Shown here piece by piece: positions 7,365-50,433 of a stretch of 64,000 nucleotides of DNA (position 1 is its first letter; each line of letters starts with the position of its first letter). The DNA comes from Bacteroidales bacterium (lineage in GTDB: Bacteria; Bacteroidota; Bacteroidia; Bacteroidales; FEN-979), in assembly GCA_030681475.1 (NCBI GenBank), contig JAUXWT010000049.1:7991-71990 (forward strand), read 5' to 3'. Below the pieces are notes generated by a model. It made no database searches. It saw only the letters and a list, made by a program, of their open reading frames with translations, and was not told the DNA's origin. The translations under genes and the position numbers were made by a program.

Positions 7365-9002
7365 ATGAAACAATTACTTCCGGCGATACTGTTATTTTTT
7401 TCCTTGTCCTCCTTGACAGGTCAAACCCTTTATGAAACCAAAGAAGGCAAGGTTTCATATGTAACCACACAGACCGTTTACGTTAAATTCCAATCCACTG
7501 AAAATATCGCCCCGGGGGATACGCTGTTTTCGAACCAGGATGGAACCCTGATTCCGTTACTTACAGTAAGGGAAAAATCATCTATTTCCTGTGTTTGCTT
7601 GGTGATTTCTGAAAAAAAAATATCTGTCGGAGATCAGGTTTTTTCAAAACAAAAACCAGTTCAGATACCCAAAACCGGGGATAAAAAAACAGTTCCGGAG
7701 TTACCGCCGCTAACCTCTGACCGCGATTCTGTAATTGTCAGGCAGGAGCAACCATCCAAACGGTTGCAGGTGGTTACAGGAAATATTTCTGTTGCTTCTT
7801 ATCTGAATTTTTCAAGTGTAAGCAAGAGTACGCAACGGATGAAATATAATTTCGCGATGGCAGTGGAGAATATAGGTAACTCAAGGTTATCTGCTGAAAC
7901 ATACATATCCTTCGCTCATAAATTGGGTGAATGGAATACGGTTCAACATGACATCTTCAATGGATTAAAAATCTACAGTCTATCGCTTAACTATATGTTC
8001 AATAAACACAATAAAATTTTGTTAGGCAGAAAAATCAACCCCCGGATCTCCAATGTCGGAGCAATAGATGGACTCCAGTATGAAACTAAAGCGGGTGCAT
8101 TTTCCGTTGGGTTGCTGGTGGGCTCCAGACCCGATTACAGGAACTACAGTTTCAACGCAAACCTGCTTCAGTTTGGCGGGTATGTCGGGCACGACCATAC
8201 CGGAAAAAATGGAAATATGCAAACAACGCTGGCTTTTTTTGAACAAAAGAATAACGGCATCACCGACCGCAGGTTTGCCTATCTGCAGCACACCAATCCA
8301 CTCGTTCGTAATTTGTACTTTTTCGGTTCACTCGAGGTGGATCTTTATAAAAAAACCATGAACCACCCGGATACGGCCGTTAGTAAAGACACAACATACA
8401 ATAAGGACTACTCACCTGCCCTATCCAACCTGTATTTATCGCTGAGATACAGACCGGTCAGGCAATTGTCACTTTCTTTGTCGTACAGCGCCAGGCAAAA
8501 TGTAATTTACTATGAAACATATAAATCTCTGGTTGAAAGGCTGCTTGAGGAGGCAACCGTGCAGGGGTTTACCTTTCAAATCAATTATCAGCCTGTTAAA
8601 TTATTATCCATTGGCATAAATGCCGGATACCGGAATAGCAAAACGGACCCAAGGCCATCGAAAAATATTTACGGGTATGTCTCATTCAGCAGGATTCCGG
8701 GCATCAATGTGACAAGTACTGTTTCAGCTACTATTCTGGAAACCGGTTATCTGTCGGGAAACATATACAGCCTGGGTGTCTCACGTGATGTGGTGGAAGG
8801 AAAGTTGACGGCAGGCATGAACTACCGGTATGTCAGCTACCGGTTTCAGGGCGGTGAAACCCAACTGGTTCAAAACATGGGTGAGATAAATTTCACCTGG
8901 CGGATATTAAGAAAACTTTCCTGCGGTTTGTATTATGAAGGCACGTTTGACAAATCATCAACATTCAATCGCATTTACGTTAACCTAACCCAACGATTTT
9001 AA
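7365..9002 (+). CDS. Putative outer-membrane beta-barrel protein
   Basis: 545 aa with signal peptide MKQLLPAILLFFSLSSLTGQ. It shows alternating beta-strand-like sequence rich in Y/G/N/S and a C-terminal ...YVNLTQRF aromatic terminus. It starts 10 nt after the cytochrome gene. Confidence 0.6.
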   Translation: MKQLLPAILLFFSLSSLTGQTLYETKEGKVSYVTTQTVYVKFQSTENIAPGDTLFSNQDGTLIPLLTVREKSSISCVCLVISEKKISVGDQVFSKQKPVQIPKTGDKKTVPELPPLTSDRDSVIVRQEQPSKRLQVVTGNISVASYLNFSSVSKSTQRMKYNFAMAVENIGNSRLSAETYISFAHKLGEWNTVQHDIFNGLKIYSLSLNYMFNKHNKILLGRKINPRISNVGAIDGLQYETKAGAFSVGLLVGSRPDYRNYSFNANLLQFGGYVGHDHTGKNGNMQTTLAFFEQKNNGITDRRFAYLQHTNPLVRNLYFFGSLEVDLYKKTMNHPDTAVSKDTTYNKDYSPALSNLYLSLRYRPVRQLSLSLSYSARQNVIYYETYKSLVERLLEEATVQGFTFQINYQPVKLLSIGINAGYRNSKTDPRPSKNIYGYVSFSRIPGINVTSTVSATILETGYLSGNIYSLGVSRDVVEGKLTAGMNYRYVSYRFQGGETQLVQNMGEINFTWRILRKLSCGLYYEGTFDKSSTFNRIYVNLTQRF

Positions 9003-42604: not shown

Positions 42605-42834
42605 CGGGGAAATTAATTTTCGCTGAAAAGCATCGTGATTTTTCCCGGGAAAGTCTTACCATAGCATAAGACATTGGTAACCATTGCCAATCCGGAATTT
42701 CAGTTTTGACCACCTTTGGTCAACTTCCTTTGTGATATTTCTGGCTCATTCAATCTTTTCGGAGTGGCTTCAATAATCTATTTTTAAGATTTAACATTGT
42801 GTATTAGTAAGATTTTTGAAATATGAATAGAGAG

Positions 42835-44192: not shown

Positions 44193-44265
44193 AGCGGTAA
44201 ATGGGATTCGGACCCACGACCCTCAGCTTGGGAAGCTGATGCTCTACCAACTGAGCTACTACCGC
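44193..44265 (-). tRNA. tRNA-Gly (anticodon CCC)
   Basis: I folded the cloverleaf by hand: acceptor GCGGTAG/TTACCGC, D arm GCTC-AGTTGGTA-GAGC, anticodon arm TCAGC-TTCCCAA-GCTGA, T arm GTGGG-TCCGAAT-CCCAT. It is 73 nt with no encoded CCA. Confidence 0.88.
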
Positions 44266-45028: not shown

Positions 45029-45915
45029 TATCCACCATGTTATCACTTAAATCATTGTTAACCGCGATAGGCTTTCTGTTGATTTTTAGCCTGTTTTTCT
45101 TTTTTAACCAATCGTGTTCGATGCAGGGAGATAAACAAAGTCAGCCTTCCGACAGTGTTTCCATGCAAGGTGATACCGTTGCAGCAATTTCAGGGGGGAA
45201 ACTGCCGGAAAAATTCATTTCAGGGATTGACAGTTCCGAAATGATCCTGATCCCCTATGGCAACTTTATCTATGGGATCAGAAAAAAAAGCCGGGACAGC
45301 ATTCTTAAAGTACTTTCAAACGCGAACCTGGATATTTTTGAAGAGGAACTCCCATTGCAAAACAAATTCCTCCCATCATACTACATTGATAAAACGGAGG
45401 TAACCAATGCCCAATATGATAAATTCGTTGCCGCCACCGGCCACAAACCTTCAAGGCTCAGGGATTCAAGGATCTTCGGATCACCTGACAAACCGGTCGT
45501 TGGTATCGGATGGGCAGATGCCTTAGCTTATGCAAAATGGGCAGGCAAAAGGCTTCCGACCGAAGAAGAATGGGAAAAAGCAGCCAGAGGGACGGATGGC
45601 AGGATGTGGCCATGGGGCAATACACCTGCTCCTGATAACTATAATGGGAAAACACAGGGGTACTATGCCCCGGTCAAGGTTGGTACATTTAAAAACGGGG
45701 CCAGCCCATACGGTGTTCTTGACATGGCAGGAAATGTATATGAAATGACCACCGGGAAATGGCAGGTCACCTCGCATACCATGAGAGGGGGTTGTTATTT
45801 AAACAGCGGGGCATACGTGCGGACGATGTTCCGTTGGGCAACAGAGGATGAAATAAACGGCGCTGAATGGCTGGGGTTCAGGTGTGTGATGGATACTATG
45901 AAAATAACCCAATGA
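45025..45915 (+). CDS. Formylglycine-generating-enzyme (SUMF1/FGE-sulfatase) domain protein, membrane- or lipid-anchored
   Basis: 296 aa with YYIDKTEVTNAQYDKF, PVVGIGWADALAYAKWAGKRLPTEEEWEKAARG, PYGVLDMAGNVYEM and RGG. Confidence 0.8.
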   Translation: MISTMLSLKSLLTAIGFLLIFSLFFFFNQSCSMQGDKQSQPSDSVSMQGDTVAAISGGKLPEKFISGIDSSEMILIPYGNFIYGIRKKSRDSILKVLSNANLDIFEEELPLQNKFLPSYYIDKTEVTNAQYDKFVAATGHKPSRLRDSRIFGSPDKPVVGIGWADALAYAKWAGKRLPTEEEWEKAARGTDGRMWPWGNTPAPDNYNGKTQGYYAPVKVGTFKNGASPYGVLDMAGNVYEMTTGKWQVTSHTMRGGCYLNSGAYVRTMFRWATEDEINGAEWLGFRCVMDTMKITQ

Positions 45916-45965
45916 ATGTAAAGGTACAATTCACCCTGCCACCTTAATAAATTGGTTTTAGAGAT

Positions 45966-46199
45966 ATGTCTGAACTCGAGTTCTTCATGCCCAGCCGGGA
46001 AGGCCAGCCATTTTTTACGCGTGAATGGTCCCATGACAGGAGGTCCAATCATACCATCCTACTAACCTCTTTTACCGCTACCAGGGAATTGTCAGAAGAT
46101 ATGCTCACCGATCATACCTTCAAGGCCTGGGAAGGATTGTTCCATGAACTTCACAACGAAATTGTCCGGAAGAAAATCCTGGGCTATCTAAAAGAGTAG
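45966..46199 (+). pseudogene. Possible alpha/beta-hydrolase (lysophospholipase-like) remnant: N-terminus fused in frame to C-terminus
   Basis: 77 aa. EFFMPSREGQPFFTREW....HTILL resembles the N-terminal strand region. FKAWEGLFHELHNEIVRKKILGYL resembles the C-terminal catalytic-His region (..G..HE..NE.......I..WL). The nucleophile elbow and core are absent. Confidence 0.4.
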
Positions 46200-46533
46200 A
46201 TTGATTCAACATTATCCAAGTAACATCCCTTTCAATAGCTCAACAACCGGAAATATTCAAATCCGTTAATGTATTTTTATAACCGGAAAATTCCATTCGC
46301 TTAAACTATAAAACCTGAATCCCCTCCGAAAAGTATTTGTAACCAGAATTATCACAAATCTACCCACCCCCAACCGCTCCCTGCAAGCAGCTACTCTTTA
46401 TACACATCTTTGTGGTCAACATATGCCGAGGTCTGATCTATATGTGTGGATGCCTGTAAGACGAATCCACCTATAAATGTCGGAATGTCAATATTTATAA
46501 ATGATTGCAGGTCATCCATTTCTGAAAGGGAAT

Positions 46534-46561
46534 GATCCCGTAGGGATCAGATATTGGTAGC
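46534..46561 (+). repeat. Hairpin unit H1: GATCCC-GTA-GGGATC + AGATATTGGTAGC
   Basis: Read directly from the sequence. It is the inverted counterpart of H4. Confidence 0.8.
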
Positions 46562-46584
46562 TTTGGGAGGACAAACAAGATTAT

Positions 46585-46610
46585 CGGCCCCGTAGGGGTC
46601 GGATATTGTC
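46585..46610 (+). repeat. Hairpin unit H2: CGGCCCC-GTA-GGGGTCG + GATATTGTC
   Basis: Read directly from the sequence. It is the inverted counterpart of H3. Confidence 0.75.
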
Positions 46611-46680
46611 AAAAATCACCATCAGAATCCATCGTCACCATCATATGTGTGATCATACGACAATTATCTGCTAAACAATA

Positions 46681-46707
46681 ACCGATAATTCGACCCCTAA
46701 GGGGTCG
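46681..46707 (-). repeat. Hairpin unit H3: ACCGATAATT + CGACCCC-TAA-GGGGTCG
   Basis: Read directly from the sequence. Confidence 0.75.
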
Positions 46708-46731
46708 CGGATTACATACGGGGACACTTTT

Positions 46732-46760
46732 GCTACCAATATTCGACCCCACTGGGGTCG
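46732..46760 (-). repeat. Hairpin unit H4: GCTACCAATATT + CGACCCC-ACT-GGGGTCG
   Basis: Read directly from the sequence. The flank GCTACCAATAT is the exact complement of the H1 flank ATATTGGTAGC. Confidence 0.8.
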
Positions 46761-47055
46761 AGGTTAATGACCAAAATACCCACAGTACCTTTATAAGAGA
46801 ATACCAAACATTGCTAATTTGCAGATATAAAAAAGATGTGTATAAAGAGTAGCTGTGAGCAAGGATGGGAGTCCGTATACTATAGCATAATCCTTTCAAT
46901 CATGACATTAGGTGTAGTAGCGGTGTGCCCCTCCCTTTTCAAGGGAGGGGTTGGGGGTGGGTAGATTCACAAAGAAACCACTTTTTGTAGTGGACTCAAA
47001 CTTTAAGTTTTTATAAAAAAGTCATAAAAATAGGTTAATTTAGACTAAATTTAAT

Positions 47056-47063
47056 TATATTTG
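47056..47063 (+). promoter_or_regulatory. -7 box TATATTTG
   Basis: Exact TAnnTTTG match, 75 nt upstream of the ATG at 47138. Confidence 0.35.
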
Positions 47064-47137
47064 TATAATAATACACTGTTTCATCTCAGGAACAGATTAT
47101 TTCAATTAATAATTTTAACCAGATAAGGAGAACGAAT

Positions 47138-47448
47138 ATGAAATACATCATGAAAGTAAATATACCGGTCGAAAAAGGGAATGTAGCCTTAAAGGACCCA
47201 CAATTTGGACAAAAAATGAAAGCGTTGCTCTCGAAATTAAGGCAGAAGCAGCTTATTTTACGACCATGTGCGGCGAAAGAGGCGCCCATATCATTGTAAA
47301 CATTGATGATCCCTCTCAAATCCCCGCCATCTCGGAACCGTTTTTTTTATGGCTGAATGCTGGGATCACTTTTCTACCAGTGATGGAGTTAAAGGATCTC
47401 GAGAAAGCCGGTCCGGCAATCGGCGCAGCCGTATCGAAATGGGGATAG
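47138..47448 (+). pseudogene. Small conserved hypothetical (~103 aa if repaired) interrupted by a 1-nt frameshift near 47232
   Basis: Frame A (47138-47233) reads MKYIMKVNIPVEKGNVALKDPQFGQKMKALLS. Frame B (from 47233) reads EIKAEAAYFTTMCGERGAHIIVNIDDPSQIPAISEPFFLWLNAGITFLPVMELKDLEKAGPAIGAAVSKWG. Joined, they read as one continuous protein resembling a small family I recall but cannot name. AAGGAG lies 7 nt upstream of the ATG. Confidence 0.5.
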
Positions 47449-47455
47449 GATAAGA

Positions 47456-49324
47456 TCATTTCCGTTCGCTGAGTTCCATCCAGCGTTCGGTGCGTGCATC
47501 AATTTCGGGCATGATCGCGGCCCAGCGCTCAGATCGTTGCTTTAACACTTCAGTATCCAGGCTGCCGGACTGGAGATCATGCTCGATTTTCAGTTTTTCC
47601 TTCTCCAGCATCGCGATCTCTTTCTCTAGAGTTTCAAGATCACGTTTCTCCTTGAATGACAGCTTGTTGGTTGGAGGCGCCACTGGCTTTTGCGCTTCGC
47701 TGTTCCGTACGGCTATGCGTTTTACCAGTTGCTCCTTTCTTTTTCGCTCATCCAGCCATTCCTTGTATTGCGTATAGTTTCCGGGGAAATCCCTGATAAC
47801 GCCATCTCCCTCAAAGACAAACAGGTGATCAACGATCTTGTCGAGAAAATACCGGTCGTGGGTAACTACCACCACACAGCCATTGAATGAGGCCAGATAC
47901 TCCTCTAGTACATTGAGCGTAAGGATGTCGAGGTCGTTGGTTGGTTCGTCAAGGATCAGGAAATTGGGACTTCGCATAAGTACCGTCACAAGGTACAACC
48001 TTCGCTTCTCTCCCCCACTCAGCTTGTAAACCTGCTGAAAATGTGAAGGGTATGGAAACATAAAATAGTTGAGGAAGGCAGCAGCGGTGATGGTATCGCC
48101 GTTTCCCAATTTAACCACTTCGGCGATTTCCTTTACCACGTCGATGACCTTGGTATCCTCATTGAAAACCAGCCCCTGTTGCTTGTAATAACCATACCGG
48201 ATCGTCTCGCCGGTTTGTATATGACCTTTTTGCGGCCGGATCTTTCCGGTGATGACATCAAGAAATGTTGATTTGCCGGATCCATTTTTCCCAACGATAC
48301 CAACCTTTTCCCTGCGTTTGAAGGTGTAAGTGAATCCCTTTAGAATGGCCAGTTCACCCCAGCTGAACGAAACATCGTTGATCTCAAGGATCTTATTACC
48401 CATGCGGGCCCCTTCAATGTTAAGGTTCATTCGCTCTTCATATACTTTTTGCGAAGCCGTTTCCTGCAATTCATAAAAACTATCGATCCGGGCTTTGGCC
48501 TTGGTGGTACGCGCTTTAGGCATGCGACGCATCCATTCCTGCTCGGTGCGCATGAGGTTTTGTGCCCTTTCAACCTCTTTATTCTGGTTATCAATGCGTT
48601 CGGCCTGCTTTTCAATAAAATAGGAATAATTTCCCCGGTACCTGTAAACGGCTGCATTTTCCATCTCAAGCACCTCGTCGCACACCCTGTCGAGGAAATA
48701 CCTGTCATGGGTCACCATCAGCAGGGTGAGACTGGTTTTCGACAAGTACTCTTCCAGCCATTCGATCATCTCAACATCCAGGTGGTTGGTAGGTTCGTCG
48801 AGGATAAGGAAAGCGGGTTCGGTGATGAGAACCTTGGCCAGCGCCACTCTTTTACGCTGACCCCCGGAGAGTTCTTTGATGTGCTGGTCAAGATCGGGCA
48901 GCCTGAGCTGTGTCAGGATCTGCTTCACCCGTGTTTCATACTCCCATCCCTGGATGGCATCCATCTGTTCGATGGCATGTTGGATCTCCTCTTTGTCGTC
49001 GCCCTTGATCACATGCTCATAGTTCAGAATAGTTTTCTGAATATCATTGGAATGAGAATATACCTCCTCAAACACGGTGTTGGAAGGTTTAAGGTCGGGT
49101 TCCTGCCTGAGATATTCAATTGAATCGGGGCAAAATAGGTTGACGGTTCCGTCATCGCAGGGTTCGAGTCCCGCAATGATGTTCAGCAGACTGGTTTTCC
49201 CGGCACCGTTCCTGGCAATAAGGGCTACTTTTTGAGATTGGCTCAGAACAAATGAAATATTTTCAAACAAATTCTTTTCACCATATGAACGGGCCAGATT
49301 TTCAACTTGAAGAATTGTCGACAT
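47456..49324 (-). CDS. ABC-F family ATPase (Uup/YbiT-like, no TM domain)
   Basis: 622 aa with two ABC cassettes (Walker A GRNGAGKTS and GKNGSGKST; signatures LSGGQRKR and LSGGEKRR) and a C-terminal coiled coil. Confidence 0.9.
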   Translation of the reverse strand: MSTILQVENLARSYGEKNLFENISFVLSQSQKVALIARNGAGKTSLLNIIAGLEPCDDGTVNLFCPDSIEYLRQEPDLKPSNTVFEEVYSHSNDIQKTILNYEHVIKGDDKEEIQHAIEQMDAIQGWEYETRVKQILTQLRLPDLDQHIKELSGGQRKRVALAKVLITEPAFLILDEPTNHLDVEMIEWLEEYLSKTSLTLLMVTHDRYFLDRVCDEVLEMENAAVYRYRGNYSYFIEKQAERIDNQNKEVERAQNLMRTEQEWMRRMPKARTTKAKARIDSFYELQETASQKVYEERMNLNIEGARMGNKILEINDVSFSWGELAILKGFTYTFKRREKVGIVGKNGSGKSTFLDVITGKIRPQKGHIQTGETIRYGYYKQQGLVFNEDTKVIDVVKEIAEVVKLGNGDTITAAAFLNYFMFPYPSHFQQVYKLSGGEKRRLYLVTVLMRSPNFLILDEPTNDLDILTLNVLEEYLASFNGCVVVVTHDRYFLDKIVDHLFVFEGDGVIRDFPGNYTQYKEWLDERKRKEQLVKRIAVRNSEAQKPVAPPTNKLSFKEKRDLETLEKEIAMLEKEKLKIEHDLQSGSLDTEVLKQRSERWAAIMPEIDARTERWMELSERK

Positions 49325-50321: not shown

Positions 50322-50328
50322 TAAGACC

Positions 50329-50349
50329 CCACCCTGAATCCCACCCCAA
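50329..50349 (-). repeat. C-run tract CCCCACCCTGAATCCCACCCC (G-run tract on the minus strand), related to the arms of the 46357 element
   Basis: Read directly from the sequence. AATCCCACCCCAAC (50339-50352) compares with AATCTACCCACCCCCAACC at 46357. Confidence 0.6.
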
Positions 50350-50433
50350 CAAGGGTAGGACTTTTGAGACACCCTCTCTGGGGGATAGGGTAATAAAACA
50401 TAATGCAATTGTAGAAACCTTAATAACGACAAA

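Follow-up and report, generated by a model that had tools for sequence, protein, structure and literature searches.

Insertion into extragenic palindromes is documented for several insertion sequences (ISs), among them IS1397/ISKpn1, IS621 and ISRm22; the last of these, a member of the IS4 family, has 10 of its 10 copies inside repetitive extragenic palindromic (REP) sequences, and the targets of Tn5 have also been noted as palindromic (Tobes & Pareja 2006, PMC1525189). For REP sequences and their REP-associated tyrosine transposases (RAYTs), no homologues were reported outside the Proteobacteria (Nunvar et al. 2010, PMC2817692), and the REP-like units described below are from the Bacteroidales. 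We analysed a 64-kb stretch of Bacteroidales DNA (the window; G000:C38:7991-71990, where G000 is the host genome), in which a gene-free interval carries nested perfect inverted repeats that the original prediction had presented as a 611-bp foldback element. We are confident that this locus is a nest of two non-autonomous transposons, in which a transposable element of the miniature inverted-repeat type (MITE) with Tn5-like ends lies within the central hairpin of another MITE with IS1182-like ends. Comparisons within the genus used 40 genomes, the host included.

Composition of the inverted-repeat locus

The repeats themselves lie where they had been reported. An outer 19-nt perfect inverted repeat pairs AATCTACCCACCCCCAACC (46357-46375) with its complement at 46949-46967, and an inner 23-nt perfect inverted repeat pairs CAGCTACTCTTTATACACATCTT (46388-46410) with its complement at 46833-46855. 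A GC hairpin, CCCCTCCC-TTTTCAA-GGGAGGGG, occupies 46928-46950, CACA stands at 46353-46356 and again at 46968-46971, and the interval 46200-47137 contains only short open reading frames (ORFs) with no Pfam matches. An inverted-repeat search extended the outer arms to 26 nt at 96% identity (one mismatch; 46357-46382 and 46942-46967) and the inner arms to 34 nt at 88% identity, with a 24-nt perfect core (46378-46411 and 46832-46865). The only other perfect inverted repeat of at least 15 nt within 1 kb anywhere in the window is a 16-nt palindrome at position 396, and we estimate the chance expectation of a 19-mer inverted repeat at about 2e-4 per window.

A search of the whole host genome found the two parts of the locus separately, the inner part, as a 464-bp match, alone at G000:C29:4201-4664 (91% identity), and the outer part, uninterrupted, at C63:34830-35038 (approximately 82% identity) and at C65:148051-148178. 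Because the inner and outer parts occur apart, the arrangement in the window is that of one element inserted into another. The uninterrupted outer copies also provide the empty site of the inner element: those at C63 and C65, together with 24 in relatives, have a single CTGCnnGCA where the inner element lies in the window, and by comparison with them the window locus contains only about 9 bp extra besides the inner element. The empty-site comparison that had been suggested for the locus thus gives a positive answer for the inner element, with CTGCnnGCA rather than CACA as the single-copy sequence.

The earlier proposal of one foldback MITE of 611 bp, with the 19-bp repeat at its ends and a 4-bp target duplication, CACA, beyond them, drew on the perfection of the 19-bp arms and on the CACA directly outside each of them, but neither boundary withstands comparison with other copies. 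When 27 outer-MITE copies, drawn from the host genome and from seven further species of the genus, are aligned, they become alike at GAG(N)CCACTCCGAAAAGT and cease to be so at the complementary ACTTTTCGGAGNNNCTC; the repeated unit therefore spans 46317-46997, and its true ends lie outside the 19-bp arms, by approximately 40 bp on the left and 30 bp on the right. CACA is internal to the sequence common to the other copies, and in the C63 copy its right-hand occurrence is CGCA. The host genome yielded no second copy of the whole composite, and the separate copies and wider shared boundaries refute the 611-bp element, to which we assign a negligible probability. The suggestion of a MITE was nonetheless correct as to the kind of object, with terminal inverted repeats (TIRs) and no transposase; it is the anatomy that differs, with two MITEs of unrelated families, one nested in the other. 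Nor is the locus a single-copy sequence with nothing related to it anywhere, since both parts are multi-copy.

The two sets of arms arise differently. The outer 19-bp repeat reflects the G-tails of two facing hairpin units within the outer MITE, and the inner 23-bp repeat combines the inner MITE's 20-22-bp end with 3 nt from the palindromic target. A further suggestion, that the locus comprises head-to-head repeat units, holds at a lower level: the core of the outer MITE is made of two facing hairpin units, and that of the inner MITE of two facing double-hairpin units. The features of the locus are collected in Table 1.

Table 1. Features of the nested MITEs in the window, and related dispersed hairpins
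Feature	Position	Strand	Basis or remark
Left 6-bp target-site duplication of the outer MITE, AAACCT	46311..46316	.	5/6 match to AAACTT at 46998-47003
Left TIR of the outer MITE, GAATCCCCTCCGAAAAGT	46317..46334	+	16/18 to the ends of the IS at G000:C66:39437-41300; similarity in 27 copies begins exactly there
Left small hairpin unit: G-tail (the outer left arm) and one stem half	46357..46382	-	Loop split by the inner insertion
Left 9-bp target duplication of the inner MITE, CTGCAAGCA	46381..46389	.	7/9 to CTGTGAGCA at 46853-46861
Inner MITE, 462 bp, no ORF, ends CTACTCTTTATACACATCTTT and AAAGATGTGTATAAAGAGTAG	46391..46852	+	91% identical copy at C29; ends as in 1.56-1.63-kb Tn5-like ISs
Double-hairpin (REP-like) unit X1 (hairpin, ATATTGGTAGC, about 22 nt, hairpin)	46531..46607	+	Covariance model R1, 76 bits
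Double-hairpin unit X2, inverted relative to X1	46685..46762	-	Covariance model R1, 73 bits
Right 9-bp target duplication of the inner MITE, CTGTGAGCA	46853..46861	.	Pairs with 46381-46389
Split hairpin, right half of its stem, AGGATGGGAGTCCG (a decayed form of GGGAGGGGAG)	46862..46875	+	Alignment to uninterrupted copies
Right small hairpin unit: CCCCTCCC-ttttcaa-GGGAGGGG, then G-tail TTGGGGGTGGGTAGATT (the outer right arm)	46928..46967	+	Conserved in 27/27 aligned copies
Right TIR of the outer MITE, ACTTTTTGTAGTGGACTC	46980..46997	-	Similarity among copies stops exactly there
Right 6-bp target-site duplication of the outer MITE, AAACTT	46998..47003	.	Pairs with 46311-46316
Dispersed small-hairpin loci	G000:C60:68722-68766, C3:294, C8:115979, C14:12019, C27:7919, C82:5304, C86:14209, others		

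An alternative explanation is that selection maintains the region either for a structured, long non-coding RNA that it encodes or for a regulatory structure of the DNA itself, such as a cruciform or a G-quadruplex, and that its transposon-like features are secondary. The DNA fold has an energy of -124 kcal/mol (z = -9.5 against shuffled sequence), the G-tails GGGAGGGGTTGGGGGTGGG are compatible with a G-quadruplex motif, and changes in the stems of the double-hairpin units are compensatory. A z-score of this size would, however, be expected of any nested inverted repeat, and the symmetry is fully accounted for by nested insertion. Rfam covariance models gave no match in 45500-47800 even at E <= 1, and at threshold they recovered only a tRNA (44193-44265) in the whole window. 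The composite is unique to this locus, whereas copies of each layer lie in unrelated contexts with target duplications, and promoter-like matches (3, versus 4.4 in shuffled sequence) and terminator-like matches (3 versus 1.1) are few and near the shuffled level. We therefore regard a selected RNA or DNA structure as very unlikely, and the Rfam, Pfam, promoter and terminator scans give no indication of a cellular function for the composite, as far as such scans can tell.

The outer MITE and its proposed IS1182-like partner

Without its insert, the outer MITE is approximately 209 bp long, and with it the element spans 681 bp (46317-46997). Matches number up to 32 per genome, and there are dozens of copies in other species of the genus. 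Perfect 6-bp direct repeats flank 10 of the copies (AAGTTT, AACAAT, AATATT, AAGAAT, AAATTT, AATGTT, AATTTT, AATATT, AATAAT and ATTATT), and the duplications are of the type AAnnTT. Since ATTATT, AACAAT and AAGAAT each occur on both sides of their own copy, these copies favour a true 6-bp duplication; a longer end repeat combined with a duplication of 2 bp fits them less well.

The core of this MITE comprises two inverted hairpin units, each consisting of CCCCTCCC, a loop and GGGAGGGG, followed by (T/C)TGGGGGTGGGTAGATT. Where the left hairpin is uninterrupted it reads, on the minus strand, CCCCTCCC-tgcgagca-GGGAGGGG-CTGGGGGTGGGTAGATT (C63:34910, C65:148165). The right hairpin is one of a family of small hairpins scattered over about 35 loci of the host genome, with the arrangement CCCC(C)TCTCC, loop, GGAGAGGGG(G), a few nucleotides, and GGGGGTGAGGT. 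One such hairpin is present in the right repeat module on contig C60 and missing from the otherwise matching left module, so that the family itself appears to be insertion-prone. At 50322-50400 of the window, after the preceding gene, there is a C-run tract (CCCCACCCTGAATCCCACCCCAAC ... CACCCTCTCTGGGGGATAGGGTAA) that has the look of a degenerate copy from this small hairpin and G-tail family.

A complete IS1182-like element is located at G000:C66:39437-41300; it is 1864 bp long, has the ends GAGTCCACTCCGAAAAGT and CCTTTTCGGAGGGGACTC, and contains a 558-aa ORF. The ORF matches DUF772 (3e-8) and an IS1182 profile (2e-26, over profile positions 9-486 of 488), and its score of 92.7 bits against NCBIfam NF033551 is under the curated cut-off of 270; the element is best named IS1182-like, below certified IS1182 membership. 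The 18-bp ends of the outer MITE match those of this element at 16-18 of 18 positions, and both make 6-bp duplications. Given the common ends, the common duplication length and the approximately seven IS copies in the genome, the outer MITE was most likely moved in trans by the IS1182-like transposase.

The host genome contains about 7-8 copies of the IS1182-like element, and the element is present in seven of the 40 genus genomes. In the host genome, each of the seven left-end flanks has a right-end flank with which it forms a perfect 6-bp repeat (AATATT, AATCTT (twice), AAATAA, AAGATT, AATAAT and AAATTT), and complete copies in relatives have clean duplications of AATTTT (L211) and AATATT (L209). 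The 18-bp end sits approximately 60-140 bp from 13 contig ends in the host genome, on contigs C4, C26, C33, C35, C36, C38 (position 58), C45, C70, C73, C100, C106, C107 and C111; many contig breaks in this assembly are accounted for by IS1182-like copies, and the window's own contig begins inside one. The two flanks of the C66 copy find their counterparts on C73 and C100 and not in each other, and C66 may thus be joined through the repeat. Elsewhere in the window, at 42754-42771, upstream of an AAA_14/DUF4143 gene, there is a solo outer-MITE or IS1182-like end (TCTTTTCGGAGTGGCTTC, 16/18, followed by AATAAT), which is probably a remnant end.

The inner MITE, its Tn5-like relatives and their hairpin targets

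Only ORFs of 96 aa or less overlap the inner MITE, and none has a Pfam match. The host genome has two full copies and one deleted copy (G000:C94:29515-29641), in which the first and last hairpins are fused together and the right end survives (88-97% identity); this looks like a deletion by recombination between internal hairpins. In genome G015, related copies enclose this core within the same ends and are flanked by duplications of their own, which suggests that the core module was captured before the MITE spread. The ends themselves are widespread in the Bacteroidia, including Prevotella, Tannerellaceae, Paludibacter and Prolixibacteraceae, where they delimit short elements without an ORF (128-970 bp) as well as full-length ones (1557-1626 bp). 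Among 45 element pairs, 22 have perfect direct repeats of 8-12 bp, the length being 9 bp in 12 of them, 8 bp in two and 10-12 bp in eight. An initial assignment of an 8-bp duplication with the ends GCTACTC...GAGTAGC was replaced, on the strength of these 22 clean pairs, by one of 9 bp with the ends CTACTC...GAGTAG. A candidate composite transposon at G023:C59 was discarded; the 5-kb stretch between its two end matches holds only housekeeping genes, and these are two solo ends.

The terminal 19-24 bp of the inner MITE are identical to the ends of seven elements of 1.3-1.63 kb (L134, L069, L122, L155, L171, L177 and L105). One full-length element, L134:4180-5805, encodes a 481-aa transposase that scores 338 bits against NCBIfam transpos_IS4_3 (cut-off 160) and aligns with the Tn5 transposase (PDB 1muh) over its full length (residues 24-478, 2.8e-22), and homologues of this protein at just 46% identity have the same ends. 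The putative transposase source of the inner MITE is thus a Tn5-like IS of the IS4 family. A simple origin of the MITE as a deletion derivative of these full-length ISs was considered and rejected; only the ends are in common, and the interior is unrelated.

Comparison with the Tn5 mosaic end, CTGTCTCTTATACACATCT, gives 14 of 19 positions identical to the inner-MITE repeat CTACTCTTTATACACATCT, including a run of 12. This 12-nt run, TTATACACATCT, is common to the inner-MITE end and to the Nextera/Tn5 mosaic end. We also observed that the termini of many metagenome contigs coincide with an inner-MITE end or lie a few bases from it (L089:1-18, L098:3975-3992, L065:13-30, L072:35-52 and others). 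Repeat collapse is the obvious cause of these breaks, and over-zealous adapter trimming might contribute.

Several observations weigh against the interpretation of the locus as two nested MITEs moved by these partners. Both target duplications in the window are imperfect, with AAACCT and AAACTT matching at 5/6 positions for the outer element and a 7/9 match for the inner one, beside which an additional G stands at 46390. At C29, the sequences on the two sides of the inner-MITE copy are perfect inverted repeats and not direct ones (CCTTCAGG versus CCTGAAGG; G000:C29:4186-4679), and about 10 of the 45 element pairs elsewhere have no perfect direct repeat longer than 3 bp at their ends. A left-flank DNA search of the 39 other genus genomes (E <= 1e-20) recovered no orthologous empty site for the outer MITE, since DNA divergence between species of the genus is too great. 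Each MITE has only its 18-24-bp ends in common with its proposed partner, and we infer mobilisation from those ends. Finally, no Tn5-like transposase was found in any of the 40 genus genomes, the host included, and although a positive control found it in three of three other genomes tested, the genus assemblies are fragmented and this is weak evidence of absence. With the transposase undetected in both genome and genus, the inner copy is probably immobile now, and the MITE looks orphaned in this lineage.

The imperfect duplication in the window, the inverted C29 flanks and the pairs without direct repeats could also be explained if the inner element had arisen by recombination or template switching between hairpin repeats, the apparent duplication being a chance likeness between the halves of a palindromic target. 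This is difficult to reconcile with the perfect 8-12-bp direct repeats at 22 of the 45 pairs, with the window having just about 9 bp in addition to the element when compared with uninterrupted copies, and with the intact Tn5-like transposase encoded by full-length elements with the same ends; we consider such an origin to be most improbable, and retain insertion of a MITE with Tn5-like ends. A separate observation concerns several copies in which the middle of the duplication is inverted from one flank to the other; the window has CA versus TG and L069 has AA versus TT, and C29, L096 and L155 are similar. A template-switch correction of the quasi-palindrome, within the long hairpin formed by the ends and the target together, is a possible explanation of these inverted centres.

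The inner-type copies in the window, at C29 and in G015 all lie in loops of the G/C-run hairpin family, and the Tn5-like family as a whole inserts preferentially at the centre of CCCC..GGGG hairpins. When 153 non-redundant flanks were read from the outside towards the element end, C made up 56-69% at positions -8 to -17 on either side, and positions -1 to -4 were rich in purines; it follows that the target is rich in C to its left and in G to its right. When empty sites were reconstructed, 11 of 22 had a perfect stem of at least 5 bp centred on the duplication, the longest being 13 bp, as compared to 4.8% of 2000 random sites from the same loci. The preference is shown statistically, and the flank data do not separate hairpin structure from C/G-run sequence as the thing recognised. 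Insertion at hairpin centres places a palindrome within a palindrome, and hence gives rise to the nested symmetry of the locus.

Double-hairpin units and comparison with known systems

The core of the inner MITE contains the two units X1 and X2, which together form an inverted doublet resembling a REPIN (REP doublet forming a hairpin). Each unit is approximately 76 nt long and consists of a hairpin, nATATTGGTAGC, about 22 nt, a second hairpin and AATTAT. The stems vary between copies yet stay paired (GATCCC/GGGATC, GACCCC/GGGGTC, GGCCCC/GGGGCC and GCGCTCC/GGAGCGC). A covariance model identified 14 strong units in the host genome and units in 21 of the 40 genus genomes, with at least 80 in one of them, and the units are often found in inverted pairs approximately 100 bp apart.

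Such units also adjoin transposase genes. At G000:C60:67948-68866 there are two units on each side of a 153-aa Y1/HUH transposase gene, and the Y1 gene at G004:C44:8358-8702 is flanked by units at 7937, 8176, 8771 and 8868 (region G004:C44:7937-8943). Weaker unit matches adjoin Y1 genes at G000:C44:9083-9780 and G000:C65:36674-36750, and units adjoin Y1 genes at G061:C33 and G061:C38 as well. The unit-flanked genes encode proteins of approximately 150-170 aa and were assigned by a match to Pfam Y1_Tnp (PF01797). By analogy, the double-hairpin units and Y1 genes may represent a REPIN/RAYT-like pattern in a genus of the Bacteroidales. The likeness to described REP/REPIN-RAYT systems (PMC2817692) consists in the inverted pairing of units, in their direct flanking of single-copy Y1/HUH genes and in the compensatory changes in their stems. 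The units here differ in being double hairpins of approximately 76 nt with a conserved TGGTAGC spacer motif, and in their low copy number in the host genome. REP sequences are typified by more than 100 copies per genome and a GT(A/G)G head; the host genome has 14 units and one relative at least 80, and GTAG is present in many of the unit hairpin loops rather than as a 5' head.

The history of the locus is as follows. The approximately 209-bp MITE entered an AT-rich site, duplicating 6 bp, and its facing hairpin units, each composed of a C-rich stem, a loop, a G-rich stem and a G-tail, yield the 19-26-bp outer repeat. The 462-bp MITE with Tn5-like ends then entered the loop of the left hairpin, duplicating approximately 9 bp, with its palindromic ends and palindromic target together yielding the 23-34-bp inner repeat. 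The REPIN-like pair of units may have been captured by the inner MITE before its amplification.

What had been a candidate for a novel foldback element or structured RNA is thus replaced by two defined MITE families with their partners, ends and duplication lengths. Both MITEs and their IS partners are additions to known kinds of element, and the locus is ordinary mobile-DNA debris, although the defined families can be used for masking and annotating many Bacteroidales genomes and for explaining contig breaks. The preference for hairpin centres explains how layered palindromic islands originate, and the double-hairpin units flanking Y1 genes may be worth separate attention as a REPIN-like system in the Bacteroidales. 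More speculatively, and as a conjecture that we hold only tentatively and with considerable doubt, the Tn5-like IS and MITE family might select extruded hairpins or cruciforms of the G/C-run repeat as gene-free landing pads and so build Russian-doll islands; these would also carry a REPIN/RAYT-type system that is undescribed for the Bacteroidales as far as could be checked, and the inverted central dinucleotides would be marks of quasi-palindrome correction.

The transposon families involved can be compared with described elements. The partner of the outer MITE resembles members of the IS1182 family (IS5 supergroup) in having a single 558-aa DDE-type ORF with a DUF772 N-terminal domain and TIRs, and the MITE has the same repeats and duplication length; the partner differs in scoring below the curated cut-off and in its fixed 6-bp AAnnTT duplication. 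The inner MITE resembles MITEs of the IS4 family (IS50/Tn5 group) in being a multi-copy, ORF-less element of 462 bp with 20-22-bp TIRs starting 5'-CT, and the commonest duplication in its family, 9 bp (12 of 22; range 8-12), is that of Tn5. It differs from these in that no cognate transposase was found in the genome or genus, in that its interior is a captured REPIN-like module, and in the strong preference of its family for CCCC..GGGG hairpin centres. With the ISs that target REP sequences, the inner family shares the habit of inserting into dispersed extragenic hairpin repeats, at their loop or centre, whereas its hosts are Bacteroidia rather than Proteobacteria, its target is a G/C-run hairpin family rather than a classical REP sequence, and the target hairpin here lies inside another MITE. 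Since the Tn5-like family is widespread in the Bacteroidia, its preference for hairpin centres carries REP-targeted insertion, known for a few proteobacterial ISs, to another phylum.

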